DNA of 64,000 nucleotides, taken from a candidate division FCPU426 bacterium (lineage in GTDB: Bacteria; Oederibacteriota; Muellerivitia; Muellerivitales; Muellerivitaceae). The stretch lies in NCBI GenBank assembly GCA_963738405.1, contig CAVTWJ010000009.1, positions 224,001 through 288,000 of the forward strand. Reading direction: 5' to 3'. Positions 23,103 through 57,326 of the stretch are shown here, piece after piece; position 1 is the stretch's first letter, and every line of letters begins with the position of its first letter. The translations under genes and the position numbers were made by a program. Below the pieces are notes generated by a model. The model was not told where the DNA came from and ran no database searches. It saw nothing but the letters and a program-made list of their open reading frames with translations.

Positions 23103-23180
23103 AAGCAGAAGGAGCTTCATGGCGGAGCGCTATTAAAAACGCTCCGCTTGGCTTCCTAACTTGTTCAAGGGGAATTGAAA

Positions 23181-25512: not shown

Positions 25513-25521
25513 GGGGAAAAC

Positions 25522-38623: not shown

Positions 38624-39652
38624 ATGATCACCAGCACCATCTATGACGTGGCCGCAAAGGCGGGCGTTTCCATTTCCACCGTTTCCCGCGTGTTAAATAA
38701 CAATCCCAACGTTTTGGACGAGACCCGCCAAAAGGTCTTGAAGGTGATCGCCGAGCTTCAATTCAAGCCCAACCCCATCGCCCGGGGCCTGGTGGTCAAG
38801 CAAACCAACCTTATCGAGGTTTTCTTTTCCTGGGCGGGTTATGAATTCGGATTCAACAGCCCCTGGTACGCGAAGATTTTGGACGGCATCAACCAGGTGG
38901 TCCAAGAAAACCAATACGGCATCCTCATCAACACCATCGCCGGGGTCTTCGACCCCGAGGAAGTTTACCGCCGGGTGTTCCACAACGCGGTGGACGGTGT
39001 TTTGATGGTGTCGCCCTACCTGGAAGAAAAACAAGTGGCCCAAATGATGGAAAACAGGGTTCCGGTGGTCTTAATCGGCTATCGCACTTTAAACCCGCAC
39101 CTGGATTTCGTGGATAGCGACAATATGCAGGCCGCGGGACAGGTGGTGGATCATCTGGTAAAACTGGGGCATAAAAAAATCGCCATCATCACGGGGCAGC
39201 AAAAAACTTCCCGCAACGCTTCGGACCGTCTTTCCGGTTTCAAACTGGTCATGCACCGCCATGGTTTGACCGTCCCGGAAGAATATATACACGAAGGCGA
39301 CTTTATGAGGGAATCGGGGGAAGAAGGCATGACCCGGTTGTTGAGCTTGCCCGATAAACCCACGGCCGTTTTCGCGAGCAATGATTTGATGGCCTTGGGC
39401 GCCATCAAGTCCCTGGAAAAAGCCAAGCTGAAAGTAGGAAAAGACATGGCCCTAGTGGGCTTTGACGATATCACCGAAGCCTCCCTTCCACCGGTTTCGT
39501 TAACCACCGTCCGGCAGGATTACCGCACCATCAGCGTGGAGGCGGCCCGCATTCTCCTGCAGAAAATACAGACCCCGGAACATTGGCGCCCCAAGCAAAT
39601 GCTGATTCCGACCGAGCTTGTGGTAAGAACTTCCTGCGGATCGAAAAAATAG
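38624..39652 (+). CDS. LacI family transcriptional regulator
   Basis: TIYDVAAKAGVSISTVSRVLN, PNPIARGL, AVFASNDLMALG, VGFDD, LTTVRQ. Confidence 0.96.
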   Translation: MITSTIYDVAAKAGVSISTVSRVLNNNPNVLDETRQKVLKVIAELQFKPNPIARGLVVKQTNLIEVFFSWAGYEFGFNSPWYAKILDGINQVVQENQYGILINTIAGVFDPEEVYRRVFHNAVDGVLMVSPYLEEKQVAQMMENRVPVVLIGYRTLNPHLDFVDSDNMQAAGQVVDHLVKLGHKKIAIITGQQKTSRNASDRLSGFKLVMHRHGLTVPEEYIHEGDFMRESGEEGMTRLLSLPDKPTAVFASNDLMALGAIKSLEKAKLKVGKDMALVGFDDITEASLPPVSLTTVRQDYRTISVEAARILLQKIQTPEHWRPKQMLIPTELVVRTSCGSKK

Positions 39653-39761: not shown

Positions 39762-40544
39762 ATGAGACTTTTCTTGCAATTCCTGATCGTCGTCCTAGTT
39801 TTAGCCCTCATTTATTTCGTGGCGCAGGGACTGGGCTTGACCAAGGGTTTCAACAAGAAAAAGGAATCCAAGCGGATTATGGTCATCAACGACTTTGAGG
39901 ACCCGGACATGGACCTGGATTGGGGCACCGGCGGTTACGTGAAAATGGAAAGCTCCACCGAAAACCTGACCCACGGCAAACGCTCGGCCATGGCGACCTT
40001 CCTTCTGGAAGGACAGTTTTACCCCACCCCGACCCCAGGCCCGAACGCGCCGCCCACGGCCACTCCCGCGCCGCCGACCCCCACGCCCAACCCGAAGGTG
40101 AAGATTGTTCCCACCTCCGTACCCAGGGGCAAGGTCAGCCCGACGCCGGTCATTGACACCACCCAGATGACGCCCCCCCCGATTTCGTCCTGGCAGCCCA
40201 CCCTGGCCCTGGACACCGATTCGCCGACCCCATTGAAGGTTTACGACTGGTCCGATTACGACACCCTGAACCTGGACGTCTTTAACCCCCAGGGTCAGCC
40301 CATCACCTGGCACATCAAGGTGGCGGATTCCAAATCCTTCACCCACGAGTCCTGGGGCGTGATGGAACCCAAGAAGGTCGCCAATTTGGCCGTGACCTTC
40401 ACTGACTTCACAAACGAAAGGCTGGATTTGACCAACATGCGCTCCATCCAATTTTGGGTGGATACGACGGGGATGACCCAGGCTCCGGTGGTTTACCTGG
40501 ATTACCTCAGGCTCGAAGGGGCCTTGACCCCCAAGAAAAAATAA
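39762..40544 (+). CDS. Membrane-anchored CBM-like (galactose-binding fold) protein with Pro/Thr insertion
   Basis: N-terminal TM, INDFE, DWSDYDTL.LDV, DLTNMRSIQF, VYLDYLRL. Confidence 0.65.
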   Translation: MRLFLQFLIVVLVLALIYFVAQGLGLTKGFNKKKESKRIMVINDFEDPDMDLDWGTGGYVKMESSTENLTHGKRSAMATFLLEGQFYPTPTPGPNAPPTATPAPPTPTPNPKVKIVPTSVPRGKVSPTPVIDTTQMTPPPISSWQPTLALDTDSPTPLKVYDWSDYDTLNLDVFNPQGQPITWHIKVADSKSFTHESWGVMEPKKVANLAVTFTDFTNERLDLTNMRSIQFWVDTTGMTQAPVVYLDYLRLEGALTPKKK

Positions 40545-42098: not shown

Positions 42099-42230
42099 AA
42101 TACCCTCCACGGCGGGTTTCCCCGCCTCCGTTAGATAGCTTCCAAAACTCCTCAAGTGCCCCCTGGGCGGGTAAAGTATATCCTTGGAAGAGGGCAGGTT
42201 GGGATACGTTTTGGCGTTGAAATACATTAA

Positions 42231-42374
42231 CAGGGCGCTAAAAAGTGTTTTCAGCGCCCTGTCGACAGCCATGGGTTTGAACGAGCCACAAAAAAAAGGT
42301 TTTTATATTCGTGGCTCGTTCCTAAGTATGAAAAAGTCCAAAAAGTCTAATCTGTGGACTTTTTCAACAACCTG
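42231..42374. mobile_element. Putative MITE with imperfect TIRs and TTAA flanks
   Basis: TTAA|CAGGGCGCTAAAAAGT ... ACTTTTTCAACAACCTG|TTAA; three internal hairpins; no transposase. Confidence 0.55.
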
Positions 42375-42519: not shown

Positions 42520-45500
42520 ATGAAAACCAAAGCTGTTAAACCGGTCCGGTTCGGAGACCGGATCGAACTTGAAATTACCTCCCTGGCCTTCGGGGGGGAC
42601 TCGGTAGGGCGGTACCAGGACTTCGCGATTTTTATTCCCGGAGGTCTGCCTGGGGAAAGGGTGACGGCCCAGATCACCCAGGTGAAAGACCAATTCGCCG
42701 TCGGGAAAATCATCGGGTTCACCCGCCGTTCCCCCGACCGGGTGGAGCCGCCCTGCCCCATTTTCGAGGAGTGCGGGGGCTGCCATTGGCAGCACTTTCA
42801 ATATCCCCGTCAGCTTCAGGCCAAGCGGCAGTTCCTGGTCGACTCCCTGGAGCGCATCGGCAAACTCACGAACGTCACGGTCCAACCCTGTCTTCCCTCG
42901 CCCTCTTCCTACCATTACCGCAACAAGGCCATGCCGGTTACTTCCATGCGGGACGGACATTTCGTGGCGGGCATTTTCGAGCCCCGTTCCCACAAGCTGG
43001 TGCCCTACCAAAACTGTCCCATCCAGGCTGACGCCATCAACGAGCTAATCCAACAGGTGTTAAGGAAGATCGACCGCTCCGGCTTGACGCCCTACCAGGA
43101 AAAATCCCACACGGGATTCATGCGGCACCTGGCCGTGCGCAAGGGCGAGAAAACAGGGGAAATCCTTTTGGCCCTGGTCACCCGAACCGAAATTCCCGAA
43201 GAAAGGGTTCAAACGCCCGATGTGTCCTTGGAATCCCTGCCCGAAATTCTTCCCCGTCTGGCAAAGGAACTGATGGCGGAGGTGCCTCACCTGGTGGGTG
43301 TTTTGCAAAACGTCAACCCCTCCAGAACCAACATCGTCTTTGGGTCCACGACCCGCGTCCTGGCGGGCCGGGACCATTACTTCGAAGAGCTCGACCATCT
43401 GAAGCTGAAGGTCTCGCTGCAATCCTTTCTCCAGGTGAACACCCTTCAGGCCGACCTGCTGCACGAGGTGGTGCGGGAGGCCCTAGGGCGCCCGGAAAAC
43501 GGCGGAAAATGGCAGACGGTTCTGGACCTTTACAGCGGTATCGGCACCCTGGCCCTGGCGGTATCCAACGAGTGCGAATATGTGGTGGGCATCGAGGAAG
43601 TGGGCCCCGCGGTGGAGGATGCCAAGGCTAACCTTTTATTAAACCAGCGGGACAACATCGATTTTTTAGAAGGCGACGTCTCGCAGGTCCTGTTGGGATT
43701 GAAAGAAAAGGGGCTGACCCAGGTGGACGCGGTCATCGTGGATCCTCCCCGCAAGGGCGTGCTGCCCGAGGTTTTGGCCCGGGTGGGAGCCTTGCGGCCC
43801 CAGCGGATGGTCTATGTCTCCTGCGATCCTTCCACCCTGGCGAGGGATTTGGCGCTTTTGGCCAAACACGGCTACGAGGCTGAATGGGCGCAGCCACTGG
43901 ATATGTTCCCCCAAACCTACCATGTGGAGACGGTGGTCCGGCTGACCCGCACCGTGCCCAGGGAAACGATCGATGGATATTCCACCGGTGAAAAACTGGA
44001 ACCCTTCCGACTTCCCCGGGAAGCGGACGCCATCCCAAGCACTTCCTTCATCCAGAACAGCGTCAAGTTTTTAGGAAAAGGGATTATGAGCTTAAGCCGG
44101 GCCCTGAGGTCGGGATGGGCCAAGGCGAGTAAAAACATGACCCGGGCGAACCAATGGGCCGGGAAGGTAGTGGAAAAGTTTAATCCTGCGCGCCCCATGG
44201 AAGAACCCGTGAAGTTGATCCAAGAACCCCCATCTCCTCTTCCTGAACCCAAACCCGTTATGGACCATGAGGAGGCCATCCGGCGGTTTTTGTGGGGTTC
44301 TATCCAGGAAGAGCAATTGACCCAGACGGCTCCGCCTCCCGCCATTTCCATAACCCAAGCCCTAGAACCCGATCCCGTTGTGGAGGATTTTTCGGAAACC
44401 GTCCTTGTTAAGTTCGCCACCATTGAGGAAGCCCTGGAATCCGCCATTCAAGATGAGGCGCCCGAACCGGCGCCCGTTTTAACCATCGAACCAGCCGCTG
44501 TTCCTTCGTCAGCGGCGGAAGAACCCAAACCGGCTGTCTCGGAGGATATGTTTTCGAGGATGGTTTTGGATGGAACCCTTGATTCCAACAGGGCCCAAGA
44601 ACCCATTTCTGAAATGGCAGTCCCTGATAAGCCGGTTTTTAAAAGTGAACTGTCTGGGACGAACCTGGAATCGCAATTTTACTTCCCGACCTTCAAGGCC
44701 CTTTACGCCGCGGCCCAATCCTGGTTGCGGGGGGAAGGGGTCATTTGGGCCTTTTCGTCCCGCCGAATTTGGGGCGCCGCGGGAGCCCTTTTCGGGCTCT
44801 TTCTTTTGGTTTTCCTGGCCAAGGCCACCTTGACGCCCCTCGTTTCCCAACCCGCCATTCCCTTGAAAACCCTGTCCCTGGAAATTCCGGATGTGGTGGC
44901 CTTGATGCCCAAGGGAAGTTACTTGCGCTATGAGATGGTCCCTTTCGAGCTCAAGGTCGACTCGATGAACTACAAGCGTTTCCAAGAAAGCCGCGCCTAT
45001 GTGGAAGTCTTGAGAGACGGAAAACCGGTGACGATGGTGGACGGCCAAACCCGGATGGTTTTGGGAAAGGAATCCGAGGGAAGAAAGTTTTTCGGGAACT
45101 GGCCCATTCCCTATAACCCCCCGCCCGGCACCTATTTGGCCCAGGTGACCCTGGTGGATCCCGAAAGATCCAACCCCCGCGTCTTCCAATCGGCCTTCAC
45201 GATTCCGCCCCTCCAGCCTTCCGGACTGGAACCGGGTTACGCGGTCCTGACCATGGAGGGGGGGAAACAACTGATTAAGGGCGCTGTCCCTTCTTTGGAT
45301 GAAAACGGGGCCATGAGCACCGCAAACGCCATCGATTGGGCCAAGTTCATGGGCGCCAATGTTTTTTGCAACTTGGTGGCCGAAACCGCCATTTGGGACC
45401 GGTTTTACCCGGAGGACTTTCCCTTCAATCGGGAAGAAATGGAAAACGGGCGCAAATACTCCAGCGCCGCGCACTCGGCAGGGCTTAAGTACGCGGCCTA

Positions 45501-46707
45501 CATGACCACTTTCAAAGTCGGCGGGGACGGCTGGCAGCAGGCACCCTACGAATTTTCCTTAGGGTATGACCTCAGCACGGATCAGGTGATCCAGACCCGA
45601 TTCATTTCATTGGATGACCCCAAACGGCAGCAGGACATTTTGGATTTCCTCCAGGCCATGAACAAGGACAACACCGTGGATTACGTGGGTTTGGATTACG
45701 TCCGCACGGGTTTCGCGGGTTATGAACTGGTGGATGAGTTCGTGAAAGATCTGACCATGACCCTGCCGGAGGGGTTCGACAAGATGGCCGAGCCCGATCG
45801 CATCCATTGGCTGGCTCGCACTGTGGAGCATAAAGAGGACAAGCAGGTGGTGGCCCTATTCGAGTGGTGGAGGGCCCACAAGGTGGCCACCATCCTGAAA
45901 AAAATATTGGACGAGGCCAAGATGACCAAGCCCGTTTTCACCTTCACCCTGGGCTGGGAAATGGGGCATCAGCACGGACAGGACCCGGCCATGCTGGTGG
46001 ACGCCGGCATCAACTTCAACCACATCATGCTTTATGAGGGGGACCGCAGCACTATCGAGGACATGAAACACCACTGGCCCAATTACCTTTCACGGGAAGG
46101 CGGTATGTACGTTCCAGGCGAGGAGGTCGATTTCAACATGGTCCAGAAAAGCCTGGACCCTCCCGCGCCCGAGGAGCTTTATAACCGGGAGGTGGAAACC
46201 TTCAATCTCTGGTATGGCTTGAACGCCAACCTGGGAATGTTTTGGCACGACCTCTACCGCCTGGTTTGGGGCGTGAGGGGGCCCTATTCCCGAATGGAGT
46301 GGGCGATTTCGGGAGGGAAAGCCTTCACGACCCTCCGGCAGGCCGAGGGACTGCTGCCGGTAGAGGTGAATTTGATCGCGCCTAAGGAAGCTCCGTTGGG
46401 GGTTTCGGTGCCCCTGACAGTGGACATCCATAACCATTCGGACCACATGATCAAAGGGCTTGTCTTGCGCCAGCTGGACGCCACCAAGGATTTTTACAGC
46501 ACCCTCGCCACTGTGGGGCCCTTGGATGTCTCGCCCGGGATGGTCGTGCGGGTGAAAAGTCTTTTTGTGAACCTGCCAAAGGAAGCCCAGCCCGAGAGGG
46601 ACAATCAAAACATGGCGGCCATTTTGTTGGAAACGCCGGATGACTCGATCCACGCTTTTGATTTTGCCTACCTCAAGGGCCAATCGGGACGTAAGTCCAA
46701 ACCCTAG
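42520..46707 (+). CDS. rlmD: RlmD-like 23S rRNA m5U methyltransferase fused via linker and TM to a putative glycoside-hydrolase-like domain
   Basis: TRAM domain, CPIFEECGGC, FLQVN, DLYSGIG, VDPPRKG, YVSCDPSTLARD, DMFPQTYHVE in the first ~475 aa; TM near aa 750-770; DYVGLDYVR in the C-terminal domain. Confidence 0.85.
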   Translation: MKTKAVKPVRFGDRIELEITSLAFGGDSVGRYQDFAIFIPGGLPGERVTAQITQVKDQFAVGKIIGFTRRSPDRVEPPCPIFEECGGCHWQHFQYPRQLQAKRQFLVDSLERIGKLTNVTVQPCLPSPSSYHYRNKAMPVTSMRDGHFVAGIFEPRSHKLVPYQNCPIQADAINELIQQVLRKIDRSGLTPYQEKSHTGFMRHLAVRKGEKTGEILLALVTRTEIPEERVQTPDVSLESLPEILPRLAKELMAEVPHLVGVLQNVNPSRTNIVFGSTTRVLAGRDHYFEELDHLKLKVSLQSFLQVNTLQADLLHEVVREALGRPENGGKWQTVLDLYSGIGTLALAVSNECEYVVGIEEVGPAVEDAKANLLLNQRDNIDFLEGDVSQVLLGLKEKGLTQVDAVIVDPPRKGVLPEVLARVGALRPQRMVYVSCDPSTLARDLALLAKHGYEAEWAQPLDMFPQTYHVETVVRLTRTVPRETIDGYSTGEKLEPFRLPREADAIPSTSFIQNSVKFLGKGIMSLSRALRSGWAKASKNMTRANQWAGKVVEKFNPARPMEEPVKLIQEPPSPLPEPKPVMDHEEAIRRFLWGSIQEEQLTQTAPPPAISITQALEPDPVVEDFSETVLVKFATIEEALESAIQDEAPEPAPVLTIEPAAVPSSAAEEPKPAVSEDMFSRMVLDGTLDSNRAQEPISEMAVPDKPVFKSELSGTNLESQFYFPTFKALYAAAQSWLRGEGVIWAFSSRRIWGAAGALFGLFLLVFLAKATLTPLVSQPAIPLKTLSLEIPDVVALMPKGSYLRYEMVPFELKVDSMNYKRFQESRAYVEVLRDGKPVTMVDGQTRMVLGKESEGRKFFGNWPIPYNPPPGTYLAQVTLVDPERSNPRVFQSAFTIPPLQPSGLEPGYAVLTMEGGKQLIKGAVPSLDENGAMSTANAIDWAKFMGANVFCNLVAETAIWDRFYPEDFPFNREEMENGRKYSSAAHSAGLKYAAYMTTFKVGGDGWQQAPYEFSLGYDLSTDQVIQTRFISLDDPKRQQDILDFLQAMNKDNTVDYVGLDYVRTGFAGYELVDEFVKDLTMTLPEGFDKMAEPDRIHWLARTVEHKEDKQVVALFEWWRAHKVATILKKILDEAKMTKPVFTFTLGWEMGHQHGQDPAMLVDAGINFNHIMLYEGDRSTIEDMKHHWPNYLSREGGMYVPGEEVDFNMVQKSLDPPAPEELYNREVETFNLWYGLNANLGMFWHDLYRLVWGVRGPYSRMEWAISGGKAFTTLRQAEGLLPVEVNLIAPKEAPLGVSVPLTVDIHNHSDHMIKGLVLRQLDATKDFYSTLATVGPLDVSPGMVVRVKSLFVNLPKEAQPERDNQNMAAILLETPDDSIHAFDFAYLKGQSGRKSKP

Positions 46708-46773: not shown

Positions 46774-46798
46774 TAAAACCCTTCATGAAAGGGTTTTA
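46774..46798. promoter_or_regulatory. Palindrome upstream of the lipoprotein/porin operon
   Basis: TAAAACCCTT-CATGA-AAGGGTTTTA. Confidence 0.5.
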
Positions 46799-46926
46799 CT
46801 GAGATTGGAAAAGTTCAAGCGTTTTAAAAGTTACATGGCTGTTCCTTGAAAAAAAAACTAACGTCCCTCTCGGCCTTTTAGTAAAATACCCCGGCTTTGC
46901 TCCTTTATCCCCCGCACGAGGTTGAT

Positions 46927-47694
46927 ATGTTTTCCCCGAAACTGAACGCCTTGCTGGGGCTCTTTTTGGTTTTTCTCCTGGCCGGATGCGGAGCGGTTTT
47001 CATCAATCCCGGTTCTTCCCAATCCTCCCTGCGCGAGGGCCTTTCCAACCCCGATCTCAACAAGGTAAAGGTCGCCGTTCCCCACGACCAATCCGTGATT
47101 TGCAATTTCGATGATGGCACCAAAAACACCAATTCCAAACTTTATGGGAAATCGGGCGGAACCTGGTTTGATTTTTCCGAAGGGGGCAATGTCCCGAACG
47201 CGGTTTTTATCGTTCCGGGAGGCGCCAACGGCTCCGCCATGGCCGCCCATATTTTCGGCTCCTTGACGGATAAGGGTGATAAGTCCTATCCCGCCTTCTC
47301 GATTCAGGGCAAATTCACCGCCAGCGGCAACTACGACGCCAGCGCCTTTAACGGAATTCAGTTTTATTACAAATGCCCTGCGGACGACCAGGCCGTCAAA
47401 CGCCGTTTTGTCATCGCCACGGTGCCCACCCTGCCCTCTGAAAACGGCGGAACCTGCGTTTCGGACTGCTACAACCATTTTGGGGCCATGATGTCCCAAA
47501 CCAACGATTGGAAACTCTGTTCCTATAAGTTCACCGAATTGACCCGGGAACAGGGGTGGGGTTCTCCCGTAACCCCCCCCGATTTGATCGACCACCTCAA
47601 GGAATTCGTCTATTTAGAATGGGACCAAAGCGGGGACAACAACGCCGGGACCTACGCGATTGATTATTGGGTGGATGAGGTCGAATTTTTCTAA
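46927..47694 (+). CDS. Lipoprotein with CBM11/CIA30-like domain (paralog 1)
   Basis: Lipobox LAGC; ICNFDDG, YDASAFNGIQFY, GGTCVSDCYNHF, YWVDEVEFF. Confidence 0.75.
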   Translation: MFSPKLNALLGLFLVFLLAGCGAVFINPGSSQSSLREGLSNPDLNKVKVAVPHDQSVICNFDDGTKNTNSKLYGKSGGTWFDFSEGGNVPNAVFIVPGGANGSAMAAHIFGSLTDKGDKSYPAFSIQGKFTASGNYDASAFNGIQFYYKCPADDQAVKRRFVIATVPTLPSENGGTCVSDCYNHFGAMMSQTNDWKLCSYKFTELTREQGWGSPVTPPDLIDHLKEFVYLEWDQSGDNNAGTYAIDYWVDEVEFF

Positions 47695-47703
47695 GATCTT
47701 TGA

Positions 47704-50451
47704 ATGTTGTTTGATCAACTTGAACCCAAGGGATGGATTTTGAAAATCAAGTTTTCAATCTTTTTGGCGGTGTTAACGGGGTGCGGTGTTTTATTGCCGA
47801 CGGGCCGTCTTTGGGCCAACCCTTATGAGGAAGTCACCTCCGATGAGGCGGTTTATCAAAGGGTCAAGCACCTGGAGACCTACGGCCTTTTGGATCCTAC
47901 CGACCAGCAGGTTTTGGATCAGGGAAAAATCGTTACCCGGATGGAACTTGCCTTTTATACCGAAAAGGCCAAGGCCCGCATTGAGGCCCCCATGTTAGGC
48001 CCCGCGCCAGTCCCCGGTGCCCTAACGGTCCCGACACCCGAAATCACCATTCCCTCTAACCTTGAGGTTTTGCCGCCTACGCTTCCGACCGCCACCCCGG
48101 TTTCTGCCGCTCCCACCCCTGCCGTGCCCGAGCCTGTGGTTCCCTCGACTCCCGAAGTTCCCACGGCTATTCCGACCCTGGCGCCCAACTATCCCCCAGC
48201 CGCTAAGGCCGAAATTGAGCAGCTTTTAAAAGAACTCAGTGACTCCACCCAGATTTTAAAAACCCGTTTGGCCTTGGAAGACGAACGCTTGAAAGACCGG
48301 GAAGCGGAATTGGAAAACCTCAAAACCGTTCAGGATGACGTGGATAGCGTCTGGAAAAAAGCCAACAAATCGGTGGGGATTCCTAATTTCAACACCAATA
48401 CCAATACCCGCTTCGAGAATTTGAACATCTCCGGCATCGCCTCGCAAAGCGCCACCAAGATTTTGCAGGAAGCCTGGGTGGGCATGTACACCGATTTAGG
48501 GGGCGTGGGCACCCTTTCCACCGGCTTCGGCATGATCCTTCCCTTCGATAATTACTCGGCTAAGGTTCAGGTGGCGGGCGTAGGAACAGCCCCGGCTTCC
48601 ATCTACCTCGGCAACCCGAGCGCCAACTTCCACCTTTACGGCGACTTGGGCAAGTGGGACACCACCTTCGCGGTGGAATGCTACCAGCCGGACACCACCT
48701 TCGGGCCCTTCAGCCGGGGCATCGCCAATACCGCCATCAAGCGTTTTGAGAACCCTTTTGACATCAAAAACTTCAACGACGACAAGAACGCCAAAAACTG
48801 GGACGACTACATGTCCCAGGTCAGCTATGTCCCCGCCTACTCGGCCAACGCGGGAAACGTGCAATCCGCCAGCGACCGGGTGTTTGACGGCATGTACGCG
48901 ACAGGGCGGCAGGTGCCCTGGCTGGGGCCGGACGGGCGGATGACTTTTATGGTGGGCCGCATGGGGGAAACCCCGACCCAAACCCAGCGGTGGGAAGAGG
49001 GCCTGAAGATCGACCAGCCCTGGGCCGACAGCCTGGTGCGCACGTCGGTGGCTGTAGAATGGATCAATGACAATTTCGGGGTCGTGCAGCCCCTTCAGCC
49101 CCAGTTGGATTTGAAAGATTACGAAGCCGATATCCACTTAAACCTGAACGCGGTGCAGGTGGACTTCGACGGCGGATTCTCTCATTTCTATACCGGCTCC
49201 GAAATAGCGGGGCCCGTTTACCTGAACACGGGCAACGCCATCGTGGACAACAGCGCTATCGAGTCGGGCGCGGGCCAGGCCTCCATCGCCTTTTACCCCT
49301 TCACGCTTTTTGGGTTCGCCATCGGCGACACCTACGCCGATTACCAAAGCAAGGTCACCATGAGCGGGCTTAACTTTTTCCATTACGGACTCTATTTCAA
49401 TCCCAGTGATTTTAACGACGTGTACGGGGCCATCGGGGAAGTGGACAATCTTCAAACCGACCGATACGGCTGGCGTTTCAACTTTGGGTGGAATGGGCGA
49501 AAACAAGAGTTCATGAAAAAGTGGCCGTCTTTCCTGGATGGTATCGTGATCAACTTGGATGTGGCGCAAAAGTCGGAATTCGTTTCCGTTCAAGACCCCA
49601 TGGGCTACAACACCATCGAGCCCTCGCAATTCTTAAGTTTTTACTACCCCGACGACGAGGGTCTTTGGGGCTTGGATATGTGGGGAAACTATTCTCCCAA
49701 CGTCAACCCGATCCGTCAGGACTACATTAACAACATTCAAAGCCTAAGAAACGACGGGGATATCTTGAACGATGACGCAAGGTACCAGTTCCGCATGACC
49801 TCCGAGCGCCTCCCCTTGATTCTTCCTATCTATAACAACGGCGGCACCCTCAGCCTCGCCCCCGCCAACCCGAACCAGGCCCCCGCCACCTACACGAGCG
49901 GCCTTTCCAAGGGCTACAACGAGTACGCTAACCTGCAGGATCTTAAAAGCTACAACTACATCACCCTCACCACCAAGCTCAAGGTGGGGCAATGGTTGAA
50001 TTCAAATCCCCTGGATCTTTCCTTCTTCATGACGATCAACCAGGTTTCCGCCTCCAGTTCCAACGCCTATAGCTACTTGAACCCCAACCTGGCGGGCTCC
50101 GCTACAACAGCCTCCCCGGGCTCCCCCTCTTCCACCTCCCCCTCGGTTTTTTCAGACAATATCCCGAACCTTTTCACCCAGCAGGTGTTTGACGGCGCCA
50201 TCATGATTAATGTGGTTAAAGACCTGGATTTGATGGGCGACATCGGCGTGGAAACCTGGAACTCCAATTACACCTACCCGCTAGTCAATTACCAAACCAA
50301 CGCCTACGGCCTCGGATTCGCATGGGACCTTCCCTGGGGCGGCGGCAAGATGGAATGGCGATATAAACATATCGATTTCGCGGACGCCTACGTGCCCGCC
50401 AATGATTATTCGGGCGACCAGTTTTTCACCAAAATTAAATTCATGTTTTAA
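47704..50451 (+). CDS. SLH-like / Pro-rich / coiled-coil / beta-barrel outer-membrane protein 1
   Basis: Signal peptide, YQRVKHLETYGLL...VTRMELA, Pro-rich linker, heptads, C-terminal KIKFMF. Confidence 0.7.
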   Translation: MLFDQLEPKGWILKIKFSIFLAVLTGCGVLLPTGRLWANPYEEVTSDEAVYQRVKHLETYGLLDPTDQQVLDQGKIVTRMELAFYTEKAKARIEAPMLGPAPVPGALTVPTPEITIPSNLEVLPPTLPTATPVSAAPTPAVPEPVVPSTPEVPTAIPTLAPNYPPAAKAEIEQLLKELSDSTQILKTRLALEDERLKDREAELENLKTVQDDVDSVWKKANKSVGIPNFNTNTNTRFENLNISGIASQSATKILQEAWVGMYTDLGGVGTLSTGFGMILPFDNYSAKVQVAGVGTAPASIYLGNPSANFHLYGDLGKWDTTFAVECYQPDTTFGPFSRGIANTAIKRFENPFDIKNFNDDKNAKNWDDYMSQVSYVPAYSANAGNVQSASDRVFDGMYATGRQVPWLGPDGRMTFMVGRMGETPTQTQRWEEGLKIDQPWADSLVRTSVAVEWINDNFGVVQPLQPQLDLKDYEADIHLNLNAVQVDFDGGFSHFYTGSEIAGPVYLNTGNAIVDNSAIESGAGQASIAFYPFTLFGFAIGDTYADYQSKVTMSGLNFFHYGLYFNPSDFNDVYGAIGEVDNLQTDRYGWRFNFGWNGRKQEFMKKWPSFLDGIVINLDVAQKSEFVSVQDPMGYNTIEPSQFLSFYYPDDEGLWGLDMWGNYSPNVNPIRQDYINNIQSLRNDGDILNDDARYQFRMTSERLPLILPIYNNGGTLSLAPANPNQAPATYTSGLSKGYNEYANLQDLKSYNYITLTTKLKVGQWLNSNPLDLSFFMTINQVSASSSNAYSYLNPNLAGSATTASPGSPSSTSPSVFSDNIPNLFTQQVFDGAIMINVVKDLDLMGDIGVETWNSNYTYPLVNYQTNAYGLGFAWDLPWGGGKMEWRYKHIDFADAYVPANDYSGDQFFTKIKFMF

Positions 50452-50456
50452 CGGAA

Positions 50457-52763
50457 TTGAGAACATTGAGACCCAAAGCGCTGTTTAAAAAAACCTTCAC
50501 CGCCGCCTGGCTCCTTTTGGGGCTGGTCCTGCCCGCTTGGGCCGAGCATGGCCGTTTGGCCACGACCCAACGCGACCCTTGGATCAATGCGGCGGCTGAA
50601 AACCTGATTTTGTCCGGTATGGTTGCCGACCCCGGCAAGAATCCCGATCAGATGACCAACCTGGAAATGGCCCAATTGACCGCCAAGGCCTCCCAAATGA
50701 TCATGGCCCAGGCCGACCCAAACCTCCTGCCGATCCCCCTGGACGTCGATCCCGGCCTTCCCGAGCCCACCCTGCCCGCCGCTCCGGCGCCGGCTCCGGT
50801 TTTAAGCGCCGCCGCCATGCCGGATCAGGTGGTTCCCTCCAAAAATCTGCAGCAATTGGTGGAAGAGTTCGCGGAGGAACTGACGGCCATGGGGCTTCAG
50901 GTGGACCAGATTGAGCAGCGCCTGGATGACGCGGAAATCCGAAATGAGGTATTCGCCGCCCTTCAGAAAAAATACCTGACCCAATCAGGAACCGAAGTGG
51001 GCGGGGAATCGCGCGGTTTCATGTATCAGTACCGGGGCTTCGGCACCAACGCCGCCTATCCGGCGATGGACTATAACGCGGCCATCTACATGCAAATGGA
51101 CCTTCGAAGCGTGCCAGTCCCCGACGTTCTTTTTAACGTCAGCTTCCGGTTCTGGCGATCGATCGGTATGTACTACCAGGATCCGATCCAACCCAATTAC
51201 CAGCTGCGCTGGTTCAGCCTCGCTGGCTATGGCGACGCGGCCACCATCACGGGCGGTGATTTTTACAAGAGCTACACGCCCTTCACCCTTTGGAACGCCA
51301 ACACCCCCGTTTATACCCTGATCGAACCGACCTCCTTTAATCGGGTGCGCAACGACCAGGAGGATCTTCTTTACCTCAACCATGGAACGGACTGGAAACT
51401 CCGGGGCTTTCACGGGGCCGTGGGCCAAGCCTGGGGCACCAGTTGGGACTTGAGCAGTTATAACGTAGATACCATGGTGGGGGTCATGCAGGACCCGGGC
51501 GACAACATCGGAGCCATCAGTTTCGGCAATTATTTCGCGGGGAGCCAGGCATCGCTCGGGTTCCTCCAGCAGAATCTTTTTCTGGGAGCTACGGGCCTTC
51601 TGCTTTGGCAGGATTCGGGCAGCGCCAATGTGCCTTATTTCCCAGACTATCCGGATAATTACGCCAAGCAATACCAGGTGGGAAGCGTTTGGTCCAAGGC
51701 GGGCATTCCCTTCGATGAAAACGTCAAGCTGACGGGCGCTTTCGAGAGCGCCTTCAGCCAATATGACGACGATTCCAGCGACGCCAACAAGACTTTCCAT
51801 GATTGGGCCCTTTCGGCGGAAGGCGCCCTGGAAGTCTACGGGCTGAAGCTCTCGGCCAAGTACTTGAACGTGGGTCCCTACTTCTATTCCCCCGGCGCCC
51901 AAGCTAACCGCTATTCCCCCGACTCCGCGGCCCAGGGTTATTTGACCACCAACCTAACCGGATTGGATGACGGCGCCCCCGGGCTTCTCAACCAAAGCCC
52001 CTTCCAGGGTGTGAACCGCCCCTTCTTCGCCCCCTATGACAGAACCGCCGAAAATATTCTTCCCTACGGGGATGCCACTCCCAACCGCCAGGTTTTCAAG
52101 CTGGGTCTTTCCGGAGCCGTGGGGGAGAGGGGCTGGCTCCAACCCAAGGCGTCGGTGGTCATCAACGCCCAAGAAATAGCTCCCAACTATGTTTTAAATG
52201 CCTTGGGCATTGGCTCGATCCCCGTGGATAGCCAAACCAACACCACCGTGGGCCGGACCTTCGGTGGGTGGGAGGGCGCCCTCGCTTTGGATTTCGCAAA
52301 GATGGCGAACCTGCCTGGAAAAACCTACGACGTCCAATTCGACTATAAAAATCAAACCACCGATTTAGGCATCGGCGCGGCTCCCTTTACCTCGAATACG
52401 ATCATCGGCGGCGCGGATTTTAACATTCCCGTCCGGGCCCTTTCTTCCCTCGTTTGGTCGGCGGCCTTTGAGCAGGTTCAAAGCACCGGCAGCGAATACG
52501 TTTTGACCGGCCAAGGCAATCCACCCGATTTGGGCCAATATGTTTTTTACGTGGACCCCTATTCGGCCACCAGCACCATTCCCCAATTCACCTACCAGGC
52601 CTTGAATTTGACCCGGCAAACCTGGGCCTTCGGGGTGAAATATCCCTTGAGCAGCCTCGTGAATATCCGCATGGATTGTTTCTTTACCAGCTACAACTGG
52701 GCCGACCAACCCTGGGACCGTAATGATGAAATTTGGAGATTCACTTATGAAGCCCATTATTAA
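50457..52763 (+). CDS. SLH-like / coiled-coil / beta-barrel outer-membrane protein 2
   Basis: DPW...ENLILSGMV...MTNLEMA, LQQLVEEFAEELTAMGLQVDQIEQRL, C-terminal FTYEAHY. Confidence 0.72.
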   Translation: MRTLRPKALFKKTFTAAWLLLGLVLPAWAEHGRLATTQRDPWINAAAENLILSGMVADPGKNPDQMTNLEMAQLTAKASQMIMAQADPNLLPIPLDVDPGLPEPTLPAAPAPAPVLSAAAMPDQVVPSKNLQQLVEEFAEELTAMGLQVDQIEQRLDDAEIRNEVFAALQKKYLTQSGTEVGGESRGFMYQYRGFGTNAAYPAMDYNAAIYMQMDLRSVPVPDVLFNVSFRFWRSIGMYYQDPIQPNYQLRWFSLAGYGDAATITGGDFYKSYTPFTLWNANTPVYTLIEPTSFNRVRNDQEDLLYLNHGTDWKLRGFHGAVGQAWGTSWDLSSYNVDTMVGVMQDPGDNIGAISFGNYFAGSQASLGFLQQNLFLGATGLLLWQDSGSANVPYFPDYPDNYAKQYQVGSVWSKAGIPFDENVKLTGAFESAFSQYDDDSSDANKTFHDWALSAEGALEVYGLKLSAKYLNVGPYFYSPGAQANRYSPDSAAQGYLTTNLTGLDDGAPGLLNQSPFQGVNRPFFAPYDRTAENILPYGDATPNRQVFKLGLSGAVGERGWLQPKASVVINAQEIAPNYVLNALGIGSIPVDSQTNTTVGRTFGGWEGALALDFAKMANLPGKTYDVQFDYKNQTTDLGIGAAPFTSNTIIGGADFNIPVRALSSLVWSAAFEQVQSTGSEYVLTGQGNPPDLGQYVFYVDPYSATSTIPQFTYQALNLTRQTWAFGVKYPLSSLVNIRMDCFFTSYNWADQPWDRNDEIWRFTYEAHY

Positions 52764-55389
52764 TACCCAGCGCCGAATCGGCGCCCTGGTTTTCCTTTTC
52801 GCCCTGGGGTGGGCCTTTTCCGCCCTCGCGTCGGATACTTTGTTTTCTGTGGTGCCCGCTGGCGATGCCACCTATATGAAGCTGGGCCAATTGGAAAAGG
52901 CAGGTCTTCTGAACCCAGGAGATTCCCAGGGACCCTTAACCCGATTTGAAGTGGCCCATCTGATCAACAAGGCCCAAGGAAATATGTACGGCATTGAAGT
53001 GGCGCAGTTAGATGAGATCCCGCCGCCTCCCGATTCGGGGGCTCCCGCTCCTCCGTCTTCTTCTCCGGCACCTGCAGCCGCTCCCGCGAACGCGGCCCCT
53101 GCGCCTGTTGCCGCCGCAGGCGATGACTCCAGCATTCCGCCCCCGCCTGACTCTGGTACCGCCGCTTCCCCGGCCGCTGCCCAACCCGCGCCTGCTCCGG
53201 CTCCCGCCGCCCCAGCTCCCTCGGATGCCACCCTGCTTCCACCCCCGGATATGGGCGCGGCTCCAGCGATACCATCCCTTCCGGACACTGGCACCGCGCC
53301 ACCTCCGCCCCCGGCTCCCGATACCACGGCGCCCGCCGTTGCCGCCCCGGCCGCTCCAGCGCCTGCTGAGGCCACGGCAGTCCCGACCCCTTCAGCGACC
53401 CCGGAAGATCCAATGAAATGGGCCAAGTTGGCTGAGACCCTCAATAGCCTGGAGGACGCCTACCAGTATGAATTGAAAGACATCAAGGCGCCGGTCAATG
53501 ACCTCAACGACAAAACCCAGGCCCTGGAAAACGGCCAATATGACCTTTTGAAAAGGCTCAAAGGCATCGATGAATATCCCACCATCACCTGGCATGGCAT
53601 CGGTAGGGTCTTCGGGGCCGCCCAGCGTTTCACCAGTTCAGACCCGGGCTATACCCCTCCGCAAAACGATAATTTCCAGGGAAGAGGCTATATCGATTTC
53701 GAGCCCGTGGGCGTCATCGGCAAACAGATTCGTTGGGAATTGATCGTGCGTTACGGGACGGCCATGGTGGCCAATGATTCCCAGGCCATAGATAGCTTCC
53801 TACCCCGCCGGGGAACCATGGAACTCAAGACCCCCTGGTTTAGCGCCACCTTTGGGGATTTCGATGAGTCCTACACGCCCCTGACCCTTTGGAACCGTAA
53901 CAACCTAGATTTGCGCTGGGTTCCGGAAATGATGGCGCGGGAAGACGACACCTTGAAGTATGAGAGCTTCATGAACAACGAACCCAATTGGCCTTTTAGG
54001 GGCCTGCGCCTGGGTACGGAAATCGCCTGGCCCGACTCCACCTGGTTTGACCATTTCAACCTCTCCCTTATGGGAGATATTTTGCGAAACGGGTACAACG
54101 ACCTTTCCAGCGGGGGCAACTATTTTGGTCCGGGATTCTTCACCGACTATCTCTTCGCCGGAAAAACCCAATTGGCTACCAAGAGGCTTTTTCTAGGCGG
54201 TAACAGCAGCCTGAAATTTTCCTTTGACGCCTATGGGTTATTGTTATGGGAACCCATCTCAAGCCAAATGCCTGGAAGCCCCTACACGCCTTACGGCCCC
54301 ACCAATTGGGCCCACCAATACCAGATCTTCAGCTTGAAGCCTTCTTTCGAGGTATCCATGGGAGACGGTGTAGTGTTGGGCGGGTCCTGGGAAAGCGCGG
54401 GTTCGCTTTACGAGGATGATTCCCAAAACAGCACATCGAACGTGACCGATTGGGCCTTCATCGCGGGACCTTACTTGAAACTCGACCATTCCATCCTCTC
54501 CTTCAATTACCTGAACATCGGCCCGAATTTCTTCTCCCCCCTGGCCCAGACCCGCCAGGACGGGGTAACCACAGCGTTAAGCTTCAACCCCGCTAGCGGC
54601 CTGCCCACACCGGAGCTTTTTTCAGCCCCGCTCCGAAGCCAGTTTTTCCTTGCCGGGGTGCCCCGGGCCAACGATATCTTTTCATTCTATGACCGCACTG
54701 AAGACAATACCTTCCCCTATGGCTTGGCTACCCCCAATCGCCAAGGCGGGGGCATGGAATTGGACATCAAAACGTTGGAAAAAGACGCTTTTAAGATCAA
54801 TGGCTCGGTTTACTTCGTTCAGGAAATCGGTGGTAACCTTGTCTCGAGCTCCGGTGTGAACGGGTTCGTTGCCGTGGACGCCCCGGTGACCGCGACCATT
54901 CCGGTGCGTAATTTCACCTACGTGAACATTGGGCCTTCCATCAACCTGGGCCCCTTCATCGATGATCCGGAAGATTTGGTGATCGGGACGAACGTACGCT
55001 TTGAACAAACCAACAGCTCCATCGGAACCCTCACCAGCGTTTGGGCCTTGGGCGGGGTAGAAGCGGGCTTGTTTTCTTGGTGGCACACGGCCCTGTCTTT
55101 CGGGGTGGATAACGTGAGCGGATCGGAAGCGGGTTACAACGGAACCACGATGGCCCGGTATTCATACCTATTCAACAACCAGGATTTGGGACTTTACCAG
55201 CCTTTTACCATCAACGGCACCAATAACAGCCTCCGGCTGTCGACGGCCTTTACATTGAATCGGAACTCCAAGCTGTACCTGGATTACGATTACACCTTTG
55301 GCAACGCGGTTCCTTATTTCGGCACGACCCCCAACGGGGGCAACCTGAACAACCAGTTCGCGGAGTTAACTTATGAAATCCTCTTCTAA
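52747..55389 (+). CDS. SLH-like / Pro-Ala-rich / coiled-coil / beta-barrel outer-membrane protein 3
   Basis: FSVVPAGDATY..L.QLEKAGLL...LTRFEVA, about 130 aa Pro/Ala linker, C-terminal LTYEILF; GGAG RBS before ATG 52747. Confidence 0.75.
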   Translation: MKPIINTQRRIGALVFLFALGWAFSALASDTLFSVVPAGDATYMKLGQLEKAGLLNPGDSQGPLTRFEVAHLINKAQGNMYGIEVAQLDEIPPPPDSGAPAPPSSSPAPAAAPANAAPAPVAAAGDDSSIPPPPDSGTAASPAAAQPAPAPAPAAPAPSDATLLPPPDMGAAPAIPSLPDTGTAPPPPPAPDTTAPAVAAPAAPAPAEATAVPTPSATPEDPMKWAKLAETLNSLEDAYQYELKDIKAPVNDLNDKTQALENGQYDLLKRLKGIDEYPTITWHGIGRVFGAAQRFTSSDPGYTPPQNDNFQGRGYIDFEPVGVIGKQIRWELIVRYGTAMVANDSQAIDSFLPRRGTMELKTPWFSATFGDFDESYTPLTLWNRNNLDLRWVPEMMAREDDTLKYESFMNNEPNWPFRGLRLGTEIAWPDSTWFDHFNLSLMGDILRNGYNDLSSGGNYFGPGFFTDYLFAGKTQLATKRLFLGGNSSLKFSFDAYGLLLWEPISSQMPGSPYTPYGPTNWAHQYQIFSLKPSFEVSMGDGVVLGGSWESAGSLYEDDSQNSTSNVTDWAFIAGPYLKLDHSILSFNYLNIGPNFFSPLAQTRQDGVTTALSFNPASGLPTPELFSAPLRSQFFLAGVPRANDIFSFYDRTEDNTFPYGLATPNRQGGGMELDIKTLEKDAFKINGSVYFVQEIGGNLVSSSGVNGFVAVDAPVTATIPVRNFTYVNIGPSINLGPFIDDPEDLVIGTNVRFEQTNSSIGTLTSVWALGGVEAGLFSWWHTALSFGVDNVSGSEAGYNGTTMARYSYLFNNQDLGLYQPFTINGTNNSLRLSTAFTLNRNSKLYLDYDYTFGNAVPYFGTTPNGGNLNNQFAELTYEILF

Positions 55390-56293
55390 ACGGCGAAAAA
55401 GCCTTTTAGGCAAAAAAAACGCCAGGCCCGTTTTATTAGGCTTGGGGCTTCTTTGGGCTGTGGCCGCGGGATTATTAGTGATCATCGGCTGCCAAAACAG
55501 CATCCCCCCCCTGGGAACCTATGGAGCCCCTGTTTCCCAGGTCAACCGAGACTTGGTGGCCGATTTCAGCTTGAACGGATTAATTCCCTATAACACCCCT
55601 TCCGTCTTGCCCGTCCAATCCATTACTGGGCCTGTACTTGACAGCACCGGCAAACCGGTATTGAGCTACCCGATCAATCCCAACCTCTTTGAAAACAACA
55701 ACCCGCCTACCTACACCATCAAAAACCAGGGCGCGGTGACGCTCCTCAACAATTTCGCGGCCTACCTTAATTTCTTTTCCTGGGGGCTTTACGGCCCCGG
55801 GGCCAATGGGGCCCCTTACGGTTACCGTGTTTACGGCACCGTGACCGACAAGGGGGACGCAGCCTTCCCCGAAATGGACATTTGCGCTTACATGGAATCG
55901 GGCGGCGCCTTCTATGACGCCAGCAACTTTACCGGGGTCGATTTCTATCTTAAGGTCGCCAGCGACGACACCTGCCTGGAACGGCATTTCGAGATACCGG
56001 TTTTCCAAACCACCGCGCCGACGGAAGGGGGAGGATGTCAGGCCGGGCCCCACCTTTGCTCGGACCATTTCTCGGCCGACGTTACCTCGGGCACCGGCGG
56101 ACAGTGGGAATTCTTCAGGTATAACTTCAGCGACTTGAAACAGCTGGTGCCAGGGGCCATTCCCGATCCACCCACCTTGAGTGGAAACAACCTCAAGCAG
56201 ATGATGTGGCTGGTATGGATGGGGGCCCGAAACAACAAGGCGGGCACTTCCACCGTGGACATTTCGGTGGATGACGTGGAATTTTTCAAATAG
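55373..56293 (+). CDS. Lipoprotein with CBM11/CIA30-like domain (paralog 2)
   Basis: IIGC lipobox-like; G.VTDKGD, YDASNFTGVDFY, GGGC...CSDHF, ISVDDVEFF. Confidence 0.72.
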   Translation: MKSSSKRRKSLLGKKNARPVLLGLGLLWAVAAGLLVIIGCQNSIPPLGTYGAPVSQVNRDLVADFSLNGLIPYNTPSVLPVQSITGPVLDSTGKPVLSYPINPNLFENNNPPTYTIKNQGAVTLLNNFAAYLNFFSWGLYGPGANGAPYGYRVYGTVTDKGDAAFPEMDICAYMESGGAFYDASNFTGVDFYLKVASDDTCLERHFEIPVFQTTAPTEGGGCQAGPHLCSDHFSADVTSGTGGQWEFFRYNFSDLKQLVPGAIPDPPTLSGNNLKQMMWLVWMGARNNKAGTSTVDISVDDVEFFK

Positions 56294-56345
56294 TGATAAA
56301 CTTTTAAAGAAGGGCCCAAGGGCGTTTTGGGCGGGAGGCGTCTCA

Positions 56346-57278
56346 ATGAAAAAACAATGGTTTGGGATAGGACTAGGGGTCTTAGGTGTCGTCTTGGCCG
56401 CCCTTCCTCTATTACTTTCCCAGGGTTGCAATAGTACCAACCCAACACTATCCTCCGTGGTTCCCACCCCTTCGGTTAACGGTATGGTTAGTAATTTCGC
56501 GCAAGGTTCCCTTAACACCTACCCAGCCTTTTCCTCAACCGGCTATTTCAACTACCAAGTCACAGGTGGCGCCCCGGGCTTCCCCAACATGATCGACGGT
56601 AGCAGCACGCCTTATATTTTGGAGCCCAACCCCAATCCCGCCCCCGGCGGAAGCCCCTACGCCATCCACATTTGGGGGGTCCAGACCGATTATTGCCCGC
56701 CTTTTAACCCCAACAATTGCACCAATCCCCAATGCACGGGTTACCCCGCCTACCAAACCTTTTGCTACCTGAAAAACGACCCGGCGAATCCCCTTTACGA
56801 TGTTTCGGGATATACGGGAATCGAATTTTGGATGAATATTCCCCCCAAAGTCGTATCCGGCGGGGTAACGACGGGAGACGCTAATCCCCAGGAACGGTTC
56901 GCTATCGGGGCCGCTCCCGAAGTGCCGACCACCACCGACCAGGGCGGTCTTTGCCCCCCTCCCTTCGGCACCAATTGCTATAACTATTTTTGGTATCAAA
57001 CCAAGCTGGGACCCACGCCAGGTTGGAAGCAATTTCAAATCCCCTTTTCCATGCTGAAGATGGACGCCGGATACGCCTATATCGGAGGCGGCGCCTCTGC
57101 GGCGCAGACCTTGATGCCCGGAAGCGCGGTGGCCTTCAACTACACGGGGCTTAACAAGGGAGGGACCAACTGTAATTTCGAGAAACAGGCGCTTTTCCTT
57201 CTCTGGAAATTTACCGATAACGGTGCTTGTGGTACTACCAACACTGATTACTGGATCGATAACGTCCAGTTCTATTAA
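56346..57278 (+). CDS. Cys-rich lipoprotein with CBM11/CIA30-like domain (paralog 3)
   Basis: GGAGG RBS, SQGC, YDVSGYTGIEFW, GGLC...CYNYF, YWIDNVQFY. Confidence 0.72.
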   Translation: MKKQWFGIGLGVLGVVLAALPLLLSQGCNSTNPTLSSVVPTPSVNGMVSNFAQGSLNTYPAFSSTGYFNYQVTGGAPGFPNMIDGSSTPYILEPNPNPAPGGSPYAIHIWGVQTDYCPPFNPNNCTNPQCTGYPAYQTFCYLKNDPANPLYDVSGYTGIEFWMNIPPKVVSGGVTTGDANPQERFAIGAAPEVPTTTDQGGLCPPPFGTNCYNYFWYQTKLGPTPGWKQFQIPFSMLKMDAGYAYIGGGASAAQTLMPGSAVAFNYTGLNKGGTNCNFEKQALFLLWKFTDNGACGTTNTDYWIDNVQFY

Positions 57279-57294
57279 ACCCAAACAATCACTC

Positions 57295-57326
57295 GGGCGG
57301 TCCCTGTAAAAGGGGCCGCCTTTTTT
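57295..57326 (+). terminator. Rho-independent terminator
   Basis: GGCGGTCCCT-GTAAA-AGGGGCCGCC plus T run. Confidence 0.85.

Follow-up and report, generated by a model that had tools for sequence, protein, structure and literature searches.

The stretch of DNA analysed here (the window: 64,000 nucleotides, positions 224,001 to 288,000 of contig CAVTWJ010000009.1, assembly GCA_963738405.1) comes from an uncultured candidate division FCPU426 bacterium that degrades plant fibre, and contains an operon of six co-oriented plus-strand genes (46927-57278) that encode, in this order, one lipoprotein, three predicted outer-membrane barrels and two further lipoproteins. Judged by sequence and gene content, this operon is a stalked three-barrel variant of the chu_1276-1280 "atypical PUL" (polysaccharide utilization locus) of Cytophaga hutchinsonii, which is free of SusC/D; its second and third barrels are homologous to CHU_1277 of that locus and its first probably to CHU_1276. 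With a probability of roughly two in three, the operon is predicted to encode a unit of the outer membrane that captures and imports fragments of beta-1,4-glucan (cellodextrins, xyloglucan oligosaccharides). There is direct support for the gene content, the folds, the homologies, the conserved order of the genes and their co-location with glucanases, and from these we infer import, independence of TonB and assembly into a heterotrimer. An earlier sequence-only reading of the same DNA had linked the operon to glycans, a link that is upheld.

Homology of the barrels to the Cytophaga CHU_1277 family

Barrel 1 is referred to below as type A, and barrels 2 and 3 as types B and B'. A search with the barrel 2 profile against 1.84 billion representative proteins (E 0.001) returned 294 matches. 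Among the matches listed (150 of 294) are a stalk-less family of ~570 amino acids (aa), which is from Bacteroidota by source names, and a family of ~660-700 aa, both with the motif PYG.ATPNR. One member of the longer family has mostly Fibrobacterota among its nearest Atlas clusters, and for its other nine members this label rests on tree position; the ten type-B barrels of this Fibrobacterota-like clade have a short coil and no SLH domain. Searching with the ~570-aa family led to an entry named "CHU_1277 family cellulose-binding protein" from C. hutchinsonii, which agrees by eye, over the first 360 residues, with the CHU_1277 sequence printed in the PMC5553014 supplement.

Pairwise identity to CHU_1277 is 21% over 522 aa for barrel 2 (E 2e-11) and 21% over 408 aa for barrel 3 (E 1e-8). 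In HHalign comparisons, the barrel 2 profile aligns with CHU_1277 at 97.2% over 468 columns, and barrels 2 and 3 align with the Bacteroidota type-B family at 99.7% and 99.8%, respectively; five controls with reversed alignments gave at most 0.9%. These comparisons identify barrels 2 and 3 as distant homologs of CHU_1277. Barrel 1 aligns at 99.3% with the type-A barrel of other families in the phylum, which in turn aligns at 99.8% with the product of the Bacteroidota gene upstream of type B; the direct comparison of barrel 1 with the Bacteroidota type A gives 88.4% over 490 columns. Through this Bacteroidota family, barrel 1 is probably related to the CHU_1276 family. The sequence-only reading had pointed by analogy to OmpM/SlpA or SusC/D as the comparable known systems; the stalk is indeed OmpM-like, but the barrel domains are homologous to the CHU_1277 family, which has been studied genetically, and probably, for barrel 1, to that of CHU_1276. 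A quick tree of 53 rows separates barrels 2 and 3 together on one side of a branch (SH-aLRT 99), identifying them as sisters to the exclusion of all other sampled type-B barrels.

Among 63 metagenome type-B loci from Bacteroidota, many of them on short contigs, type A is present in 51 and a lipoprotein with Ig and carbohydrate-binding module (CBM) domains in 37; tandem-CBM lipoproteins are encoded in 12 and 16 of them. The A-barrel gene comes first, then the B-barrel gene, followed by the genes for the Ig+CBM and the tandem-CBM lipoprotein. The sizes of these families fit the values for CHU_1276-1279 (85.25, 65.5, 41.5 and 42.4, taken as kDa as the column header is garbled) in the available part of the PMC6247017 supplement, and the aromatic spacing of CHU_1279 (87, 88) falls within the range of 86-91 found for the tandem-CBM family. 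According to the available text of PMC12016534, mutants of chu_1276, chu_1277 or chu_1279 fail on cellulose, CHU_1279 binds cellulose via a CBM11-like domain, and the cluster has been reported only in two close relatives. A group of the Bacteroidota two-barrel loci (L138-L165, L173, L174) is of laminarin type, with GH16, GH3, a GH2-like TIM barrel, a sugar transporter of the major facilitator superfamily and a Y_Y_Y/LuxR regulator, and no SusC/D among the representatives scanned. The plasmid collection contains no match to a Bacteroidota type-B barrel.

Stalk and fold of the barrel proteins

The SLH-stalk-barrel anatomy proposed from sequence for all three proteins is reproduced in AlphaFold2 (AF2) models of barrels 1 and 2, and the N-termini of all three match OmpM1 of Veillonella parvula. 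The barrel 1 profile matches the OmpM1 SLH at E 6e-9 and the barrel 2 profile matches OmpM1 at E 8e-4 (SLH and/or coil region in both cases), and the barrel 3 profile matches the OmpM1 stalk at E 8e-4. Since the Pfam SLH model has no match anywhere in the genome, the SLH call rests on these profile matches. The expected TR.E.A motif occurs in barrels 1 (TRMELA) and 3 (TRFEVA) but not in barrel 2 (TNLEMA), in which Asn stands for Arg in all 16 orthologs (of 22) where the pattern found the motif. Other features read earlier from the letters hold as described: the Pro-rich linker (Pro and Ala make up 31-56% of residues 86-160 in the three barrels), the terminal aromatic residue (F/Y in all three) and the motifs GDF..SYTP.TLWN, YLN.GP.F.SP.AQ and YDRT..N..PYG.ATPNRQ, shared letter for letter by barrels 2 and 3.

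Barrel 1 consists of an SLH-like segment (aa 38-94), the Pro-rich linker, a coiled coil (aa 165-221) and the barrel (aa 228-915). Barrels 1 and 2 were folded, and barrel 3 and the lipoproteins were judged by sequence. Both AF2 models (pLDDT 74.8 from a 43-row alignment for barrel 1, 86.9 from a 77-row alignment for barrel 2) contain SLH-like segments made of helices, then a disordered linker followed by a long helix, and 22 long C-terminal strands, a count made by the authors from DSSP strings and not from coordinates. Neither has a plug domain, in agreement with the sequence-only reading. Fold searches with the two models retrieved ushers, OprD-family porins and barrels of TonB-dependent transporters (TBDTs) with Z scores of 12-15.5 and rmsd of 4-8, generic barrel matches of which no single one stands out; for barrel 2, OmpM1 (8bym) has a Z score of 13, on par with other porins. 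Conserved inserts are longest after strands 5 and 13, where they form loops 3 and 7. In the 16-stranded OmpM1, these loops fold into the lumen (available text of bioRxiv 10.1101/2023.08.14.552755), and a lumen-facing position would be expected for them in barrels 1 and 2 as well.

Identity between barrels 2 and 3 is 32% over 355 aa. The alignment of barrel 1 with these two is confined to the N-terminus, and barrel 1 is no more than a distant relative. Within each paralog, the coils are free of indels except in two alignment rows. Two barrel-1 orthologs are longer, ~1035 aa (L061 15617-18715; L072 1201-4314), and TPR repeats are present in two members of the barrel-1 alignment, probably these two.

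Lipoproteins

The description of the lipoproteins as CBM-like is supported by a profile of 65 family members, which matches CBM11 of Clostridium thermocellum (2lro, 1v0a/6r3m) at E 1e-4 over the C-terminal 120 residues. In CHU_1279, the C-terminal domain is closest to the same structure, 6R3M (available text of PMC12016534). The Pfam CBM_11 model matches six of the 65 family members at E 0.01 and none of the three window proteins, and no SusD Pfam match was found among the 65. Lipobox cysteines are C21, C40 and C53 in lipoproteins 1, 2 and 3, respectively, and all are stand-alone proteins with an insert bearing a conserved Cys pair. Lipoprotein 1 shares 34% identity with lipoprotein 2 and 23% with lipoprotein 3 (E 8e-14), which identifies the three as paralogs; its mean identity to its orthologs is 57%. 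A gene of this family lies 5' of barrel 1 in 22 of 25 loci. The same type of domain is also found in four proteins of 920-1150 aa encoded elsewhere in the genome (contigs C1, C9, C14 and C19), probably modular carbohydrate-active enzymes.

Distribution and association with glycoside hydrolases

Matches to barrel 2 were found in 57 of the 99 genomes of the phylum, including all 32 of the order, and matches to barrel 1 in 66 of 99. Synteny was analysed in 40-kb regions around 26 loci, chosen from barrel-2 matches on long contigs (~58 full-length matches); in four of them barrel 2, dropped by the open reading frame (ORF) filter, was placed by its genome search match. The order A-B-B' is conserved in 25 loci and the 26th stops at a contig edge. 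None of the contrary outcomes named by the sequence-only reading (structures other than barrels or lacking SLH folds, lipoproteins unlike CBMs, no co-occurrence) materialized.

Sixteen loci represent a core arrangement, universal in the order and also found in the window: a LacI gene, a 260-aa protein, an RlmD fusion, the operon and lepA...dnaK. The other ten are accessory and carry GH44 in eight cases and GH2 in six, together with GH29, GH31, GH35, GH36, GH42, an esterase, sugar-binding proteins, xylFGH, xylA/B and galK (85 of the 803 neighbouring ORFs were scanned, and the xylose and galactose genes were named from their sequences). This gene set is the one expected for xyloglucan. The genome itself (3.18 Mb, 90.7% complete) has a second operon copy of this kind on contig C2 (76-116 kb; L001 17045-19687), in a xylose/galactose locus with a glucanase: divergent GH44, GH2, a sugar-binding protein, xylFGH, LacI, galK, xylA and xylB. 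All 32 genomes of the order contain GH44, and by the authors' count 14 of its 96 matches have a barrel-2 gene no more than 20 kb away. GH9 is present in 57 of 66 phylum genomes with a type-A barrel versus 7 of 33 without it (related genomes are not independent) and, counted by family, in 14 of 17 versus 1 of 6. Other families of the phylum have two barrels (A and B), mostly stalked and followed by CBM9/CBM11 proteins, near GH9, GH44 or BNR-repeat enzymes. Goldbacteria have been captured by cellulose binding and encode many CBM11 copies as well as GH5, GH8, GH9 and GH44 (available text of PMC7031533); the terms "outer membrane", "barrel" and "SLH" do not occur in that text.

Operon boundaries, neighbouring genes and candidate regulation

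The six genes are tightly spaced and closed by one terminator, as had been read from the sequence; the hairpin (Table 1) is the strongest terminator-like one in a 19-kb scan. Comparison with orthologs places the likely true starts at 47740, 50466, 52747 and 56346, and the overlap of barrel 3 with lipoprotein 2 recurs in 19 of 25 loci. None of the six proteins matches Pfam at E 0.1 or has an NCBIfam family, nor does any NCBIfam model match CHU_1277 itself, and Rfam has no match within the window.

Table 1. Coordinates of the operon and of neighbouring features in the window
Feature	Coordinates	Strand	Description
Lipoprotein 1	46927..47694	+	single CBM11-like domain; best conserved of the three lipoproteins
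Barrel 1	47704..50451	+	type A, CHU_1276-like by inference; SLH-like, Pro-rich linker, coiled coil, plug-less barrel
Barrel 2	50457..52763	+	type B, homologous to CHU_1277; SLH-like domain (degenerate), coiled coil and plug-less barrel
Barrel 3	52723..55389	+	type B', homologous to CHU_1277 and sister to barrel 2
Lipoprotein 2	55373..56293	+	CBM11-like; overlaps barrel 3 by 17 nt
Lipoprotein 3	56271..57278	+	CBM11-like; profile match to CBM11
Intrinsic terminator-like hairpin	57295..57321	+	11 pairs, 8 G-C, T-rich tail; closes the operon
LacI-family regulator	38624..39652	+	candidate controller; Pfam LacI and Peripla_BP
260-aa membrane-anchored protein	39762-40544		Pro/Thr-rich insert, CBM-like sequence features; beside LacI in 14 core loci
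549-aa probable outer-membrane barrel	40623-42272	-	aromatic/hydrophobic C-terminal pattern; no Pfam match
RlmD fusion	42520..46707	+	1395 aa; RlmD TIGR00479, long linker, conserved 600-aa domain
LacI-type operator-like site	46813..46828	+	AAnCGnTT core; upstream of the operon

A LacI regulator had been placed next to the operon; the gene is present but lies 7 kb upstream, and 14 of the 16 core loci have it, as do three of the ten accessory ones. The AAnCGnTT core, a motif of LacI-family operators, is found upstream of the first lipoprotein gene in eight of the 16 core loci and in four of eight accessory ones, compared with mononucleotide-shuffle means of 1.1 and 0.7 (maximum four each), a weak control. 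Its presence in 12 of 24 loci hints at LacI control of the operon. An inverted repeat with 9-bp arms (46775-46797), between the RlmD fusion and lipoprotein 1, is possibly a terminator or a second operator.

The glycoside hydrolase-like neighbour of the sequence-only reading exists as the C-terminal half of the fusion with RlmD, a 23S rRNA methyltransferase, but no family matched it. The fusion is a single ORF in 15 core loci, from genomes across two families, with lengths of 1240-1462 aa; its linker of ~300 aa is of low complexity with a hydrophobic segment, and its 600-aa domain has 60% column identity and no match in PDB or Pfam. A D..G.DY.R motif in this domain seems to us reminiscent of glycoside hydrolase-like TIM barrels. 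The 260-aa protein matches no solved structure or Pfam family, and the 549-aa protein, found at the same place in 9 of 16 core loci, shows no relationship to the three barrels (HHalign values of 1.1% or less). The window also contains ordinary CusCBA-type heavy-metal efflux genes of the resistance-nodulation-division type (OEP, HlyD/HMBD, ACR_tran; 23175-28680).

Proposed mechanism and alternative explanations

In the proposed capture-and-import unit, the surface CBM11-like lipoproteins would bind glucan chains and keep them close to the barrels, and the plug-less barrels, narrowed by the two long conserved loops, would pass oligosaccharides by facilitated diffusion without TonB; hydrolysis in the periplasm and uptake by an ATP-binding cassette transporter would follow. 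The LacI protein would control the operon, and the extra copies, located in xyloglucan/cellulose enzyme clusters, may be specialized. The barrels are envisaged as an A:B:B' heterotrimer, with three single SLH domains and coiled coils forming one OmpM-like stalk that anchors the complex to the cell wall. A heterotrimer is suggested because SLH domains work as triplets (available text of bioRxiv 10.1101/2023.08.14.552755) and each barrel has one, because the three barrel genes never separate, and because barrels 2 and 3 are exclusive sisters, which is what conversion of an A:B2 trimer into A:B:B' would give. The two-barrel stalked forms elsewhere in the phylum, together with the duplication of B in this order, fit a 1:2 trimer. 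The missing plug argues for TonB independence, as far as the models go. No Pfam TBDT match was found in the window; elsewhere the genome has four TonB_C genes, and seven TBDT genes that score over cut-off.

Several observations weigh against this reading. The core copy lies among housekeeping genes (lepA, hrcA, dnaK), and no recognizable glycoside hydrolase was found within 20 kb in any of the 16 core loci, one 1860-aa neighbour being unscanned; no glucanase gene was recognized in the core locus of the window. GH9 is present in five of five genomes of one family without barrels and absent from nine barrel-bearing genomes. Identity to the Cytophaga protein is just 21%, the probable tie of barrel 1 to CHU_1276 is indirect, running through the Bacteroidota family, and HHalign values between the window and Bacteroidota lipoproteins range from 0.6 to 75%, which puts the window proteins in the same fold class as those and CHU_1279 but does not identify them as orthologs of CHU_1278/1279. 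The coils of the three barrels differ in length (about 60, 52 and 47 residues). Finally, binding-dead CHU_1279 still supports growth (PMC12016534), and the available texts do not directly show transport by the Cytophaga proteins.

The best surviving alternative, though improbable, is that the core copy is mainly the OmpM of this lineage, an abundant general porin and outer-membrane tether whose lipoproteins bind the cell's own envelope glycans, so that only the extra copies serve feeding. It would account for the SLH-coiled-coil-barrel architecture and the sequence match to OmpM1, the core operon in all 31 other genomes of the order, its housekeeping surroundings lacking glycoside hydrolases, the lack of any other Pfam SLH protein in the genome and the single pyruvyltransferase-family gene. 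It fits poorly with the absence of barrels from six families of the phylum, five of them also without GH9, with the six OmpA-domain matches in the genome, including a Pal-sized one of 176 aa, with barrels that exceed the 16 strands of OmpM and are homologous to CHU_1277, and with the LacI linkage.

Slightly less probable still is a platform for adhesion and enzyme presentation, which would fix the cell to insoluble cellulose and organize surface glucanases, with the barrels as scaffolds or export routes for the lipoproteins instead of importers. A wall anchor would suit load-bearing adhesion, the Goldbacteria were captured on cellulose and have many CBM11 copies (PMC7031533), Cytophaga mutants lose cell-associated beta-glucosidase activity (available text of PMC5553014), and the presence of CHU_1279 matters more than its binding; the chu_1279 mutant, however, still adheres to filter paper, and chu_1276 and chu_1279 mutants grow poorly at low glucose (all three from the accessible part of PMC12016534). 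Marine-type Bacteroidota copies, which occur with GH16 (11 loci) and GH3 (23 representatives scanned) for soluble beta-1,3-glucan, also speak against adhesion. It is very unlikely that uptake is energized by a TonB/ExbBD or similar motor whose genes lie elsewhere and which acts on the stalk in the periplasm in place of a plug: the four TonB_C genes, the TBDT-like strand count, the TBDTs retrieved by CHU_1276 predictions (available text of PMC12016534) and the induction of TonB/ExbBD on cellulose in F. succinogenes without a known partner barrel (PMC6851124) are outweighed by the lack of a plug in the models, the lack of a recognized tonB/exb gene among the neighbours scanned and the position of at least two TonB genes next to conventional TBDTs.

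Significance

Cellulose uptake by Cytophaga and Fibrobacter without SusC/D or cellulosomes is a long-standing question. The sequence comparisons unite the stalked three-barrel operon with the Cytophaga CHU_1277 family, a link that is new here; the papers naming chu_1276 that were found in the open-access literature all deal with C. hutchinsonii and mention no stalked or three-barrel forms (some primary Cytophaga papers may mention homologs in other phyla), and the available text of a 2026 review of glycoside transporters (PMC13543919) contains no occurrence of Cytophaga, OmpM or Fibrobacter. Thereby, the Cytophaga barrels change from a curiosity of three species to a cross-phylum family with stalked relatives in an uncultured cellulolytic phylum and further relatives in proteins that look Fibrobacterota. 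The data point to a glucan uptake mode other than SusC/D shared by Cytophaga and this bacterium, and suggest a route from an OmpM-like tether to a specialized importer. The predictions (1:2 stoichiometry, a role for the conserved lumen-loop motifs PYG.AT.NR and S.GAQ, TonB independence) are approachable in the genetically tractable C. hutchinsonii, and the barrels provide markers for SusC/D-free glycan loci overlooked by current PUL prediction.

A broader generalization is tentative, with the odds against it: next to sugar porins and SusC/D, the A/B barrels may constitute a third kind of glycan importer in the outer membrane. It would be an obligate heterotrimer (1:2) of 22-stranded barrels without plugs, derived from OmpM-like tethers, common to Goldiibacteriota, Bacteroidota and Fibrobacterota, re-used for cellulose, xyloglucan and laminarin, and would represent the missing uptake route of Cytophaga and possibly of Fibrobacter, whose cellulose degradation depends on contact. 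If so, an operon with one gene per subunit and a trimerizing stalk would reveal the stoichiometry of the importer.

Comparison with known systems

The closest known system is chu_1276-1280 (as described in the available text of PMC12016534), with which the operon shares a CHU_1277-family barrel and a probable CHU_1276-type one in A-then-B order, CBM11-like lipoproteins after the barrels, the absence of SusC/SusD and the beta-1,4-glucan context. It differs in having three barrels instead of two, in the presence on each barrel of an SLH-like domain, a Pro-rich linker and a coiled coil, all missing from CHU_1277, in its single-domain lipoproteins, one of them upstream of the barrels, in the absence of an endoglucanase from the core operon (8 of 10 accessory copies are beside GH44), in the linkage to LacI and not to a sigma factor of the ECF (extracytoplasmic function) type, and in the phylum.

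With OmpM1 (8bys, 8bym, 8bz2) and SlpA, the barrel proteins share a signal peptide, a single SLH, a coiled coil and a C-terminal barrel, and with OmpM1 also the sequence match across SLH and coil and the long inserts at loops 3 and 7. The barrel part has no significant sequence match to OmpM1 in the profiles of barrels 1 and 2, and its ~22 strands exceed the 16 of OmpM1; the Deinococcus SlpA barrel has 30. Further differences are that a single operon holds three fixed and divergent paralogs together with lipoproteins, that the Pro-rich spacer is long, that the SLH of barrel 2 is degenerate and that the distribution is patchy and tracks cellulases. OmpM proper was ruled out by barrel size and ancestry.

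The SusC/SusD utilisome likewise combines a large barrel with lipoproteins that bind glycans at the surface, in loci that also encode hydrolases and a regulator, but the window lacks a plug, TBDT domains and SusD, and the analogy is functional only; membership was ruled out by the plug-less models and the lack of SusD. The CBM11 of C. thermocellum CelH (2lro, 1v0a, 6r3m) corresponds to the C-terminal 120 residues of the lipoproteins by profile match, whereas the window proteins fall below the Pfam threshold, contain the Cys pair insert and are stand-alone lipoproteins, for which glucan binding is predicted.

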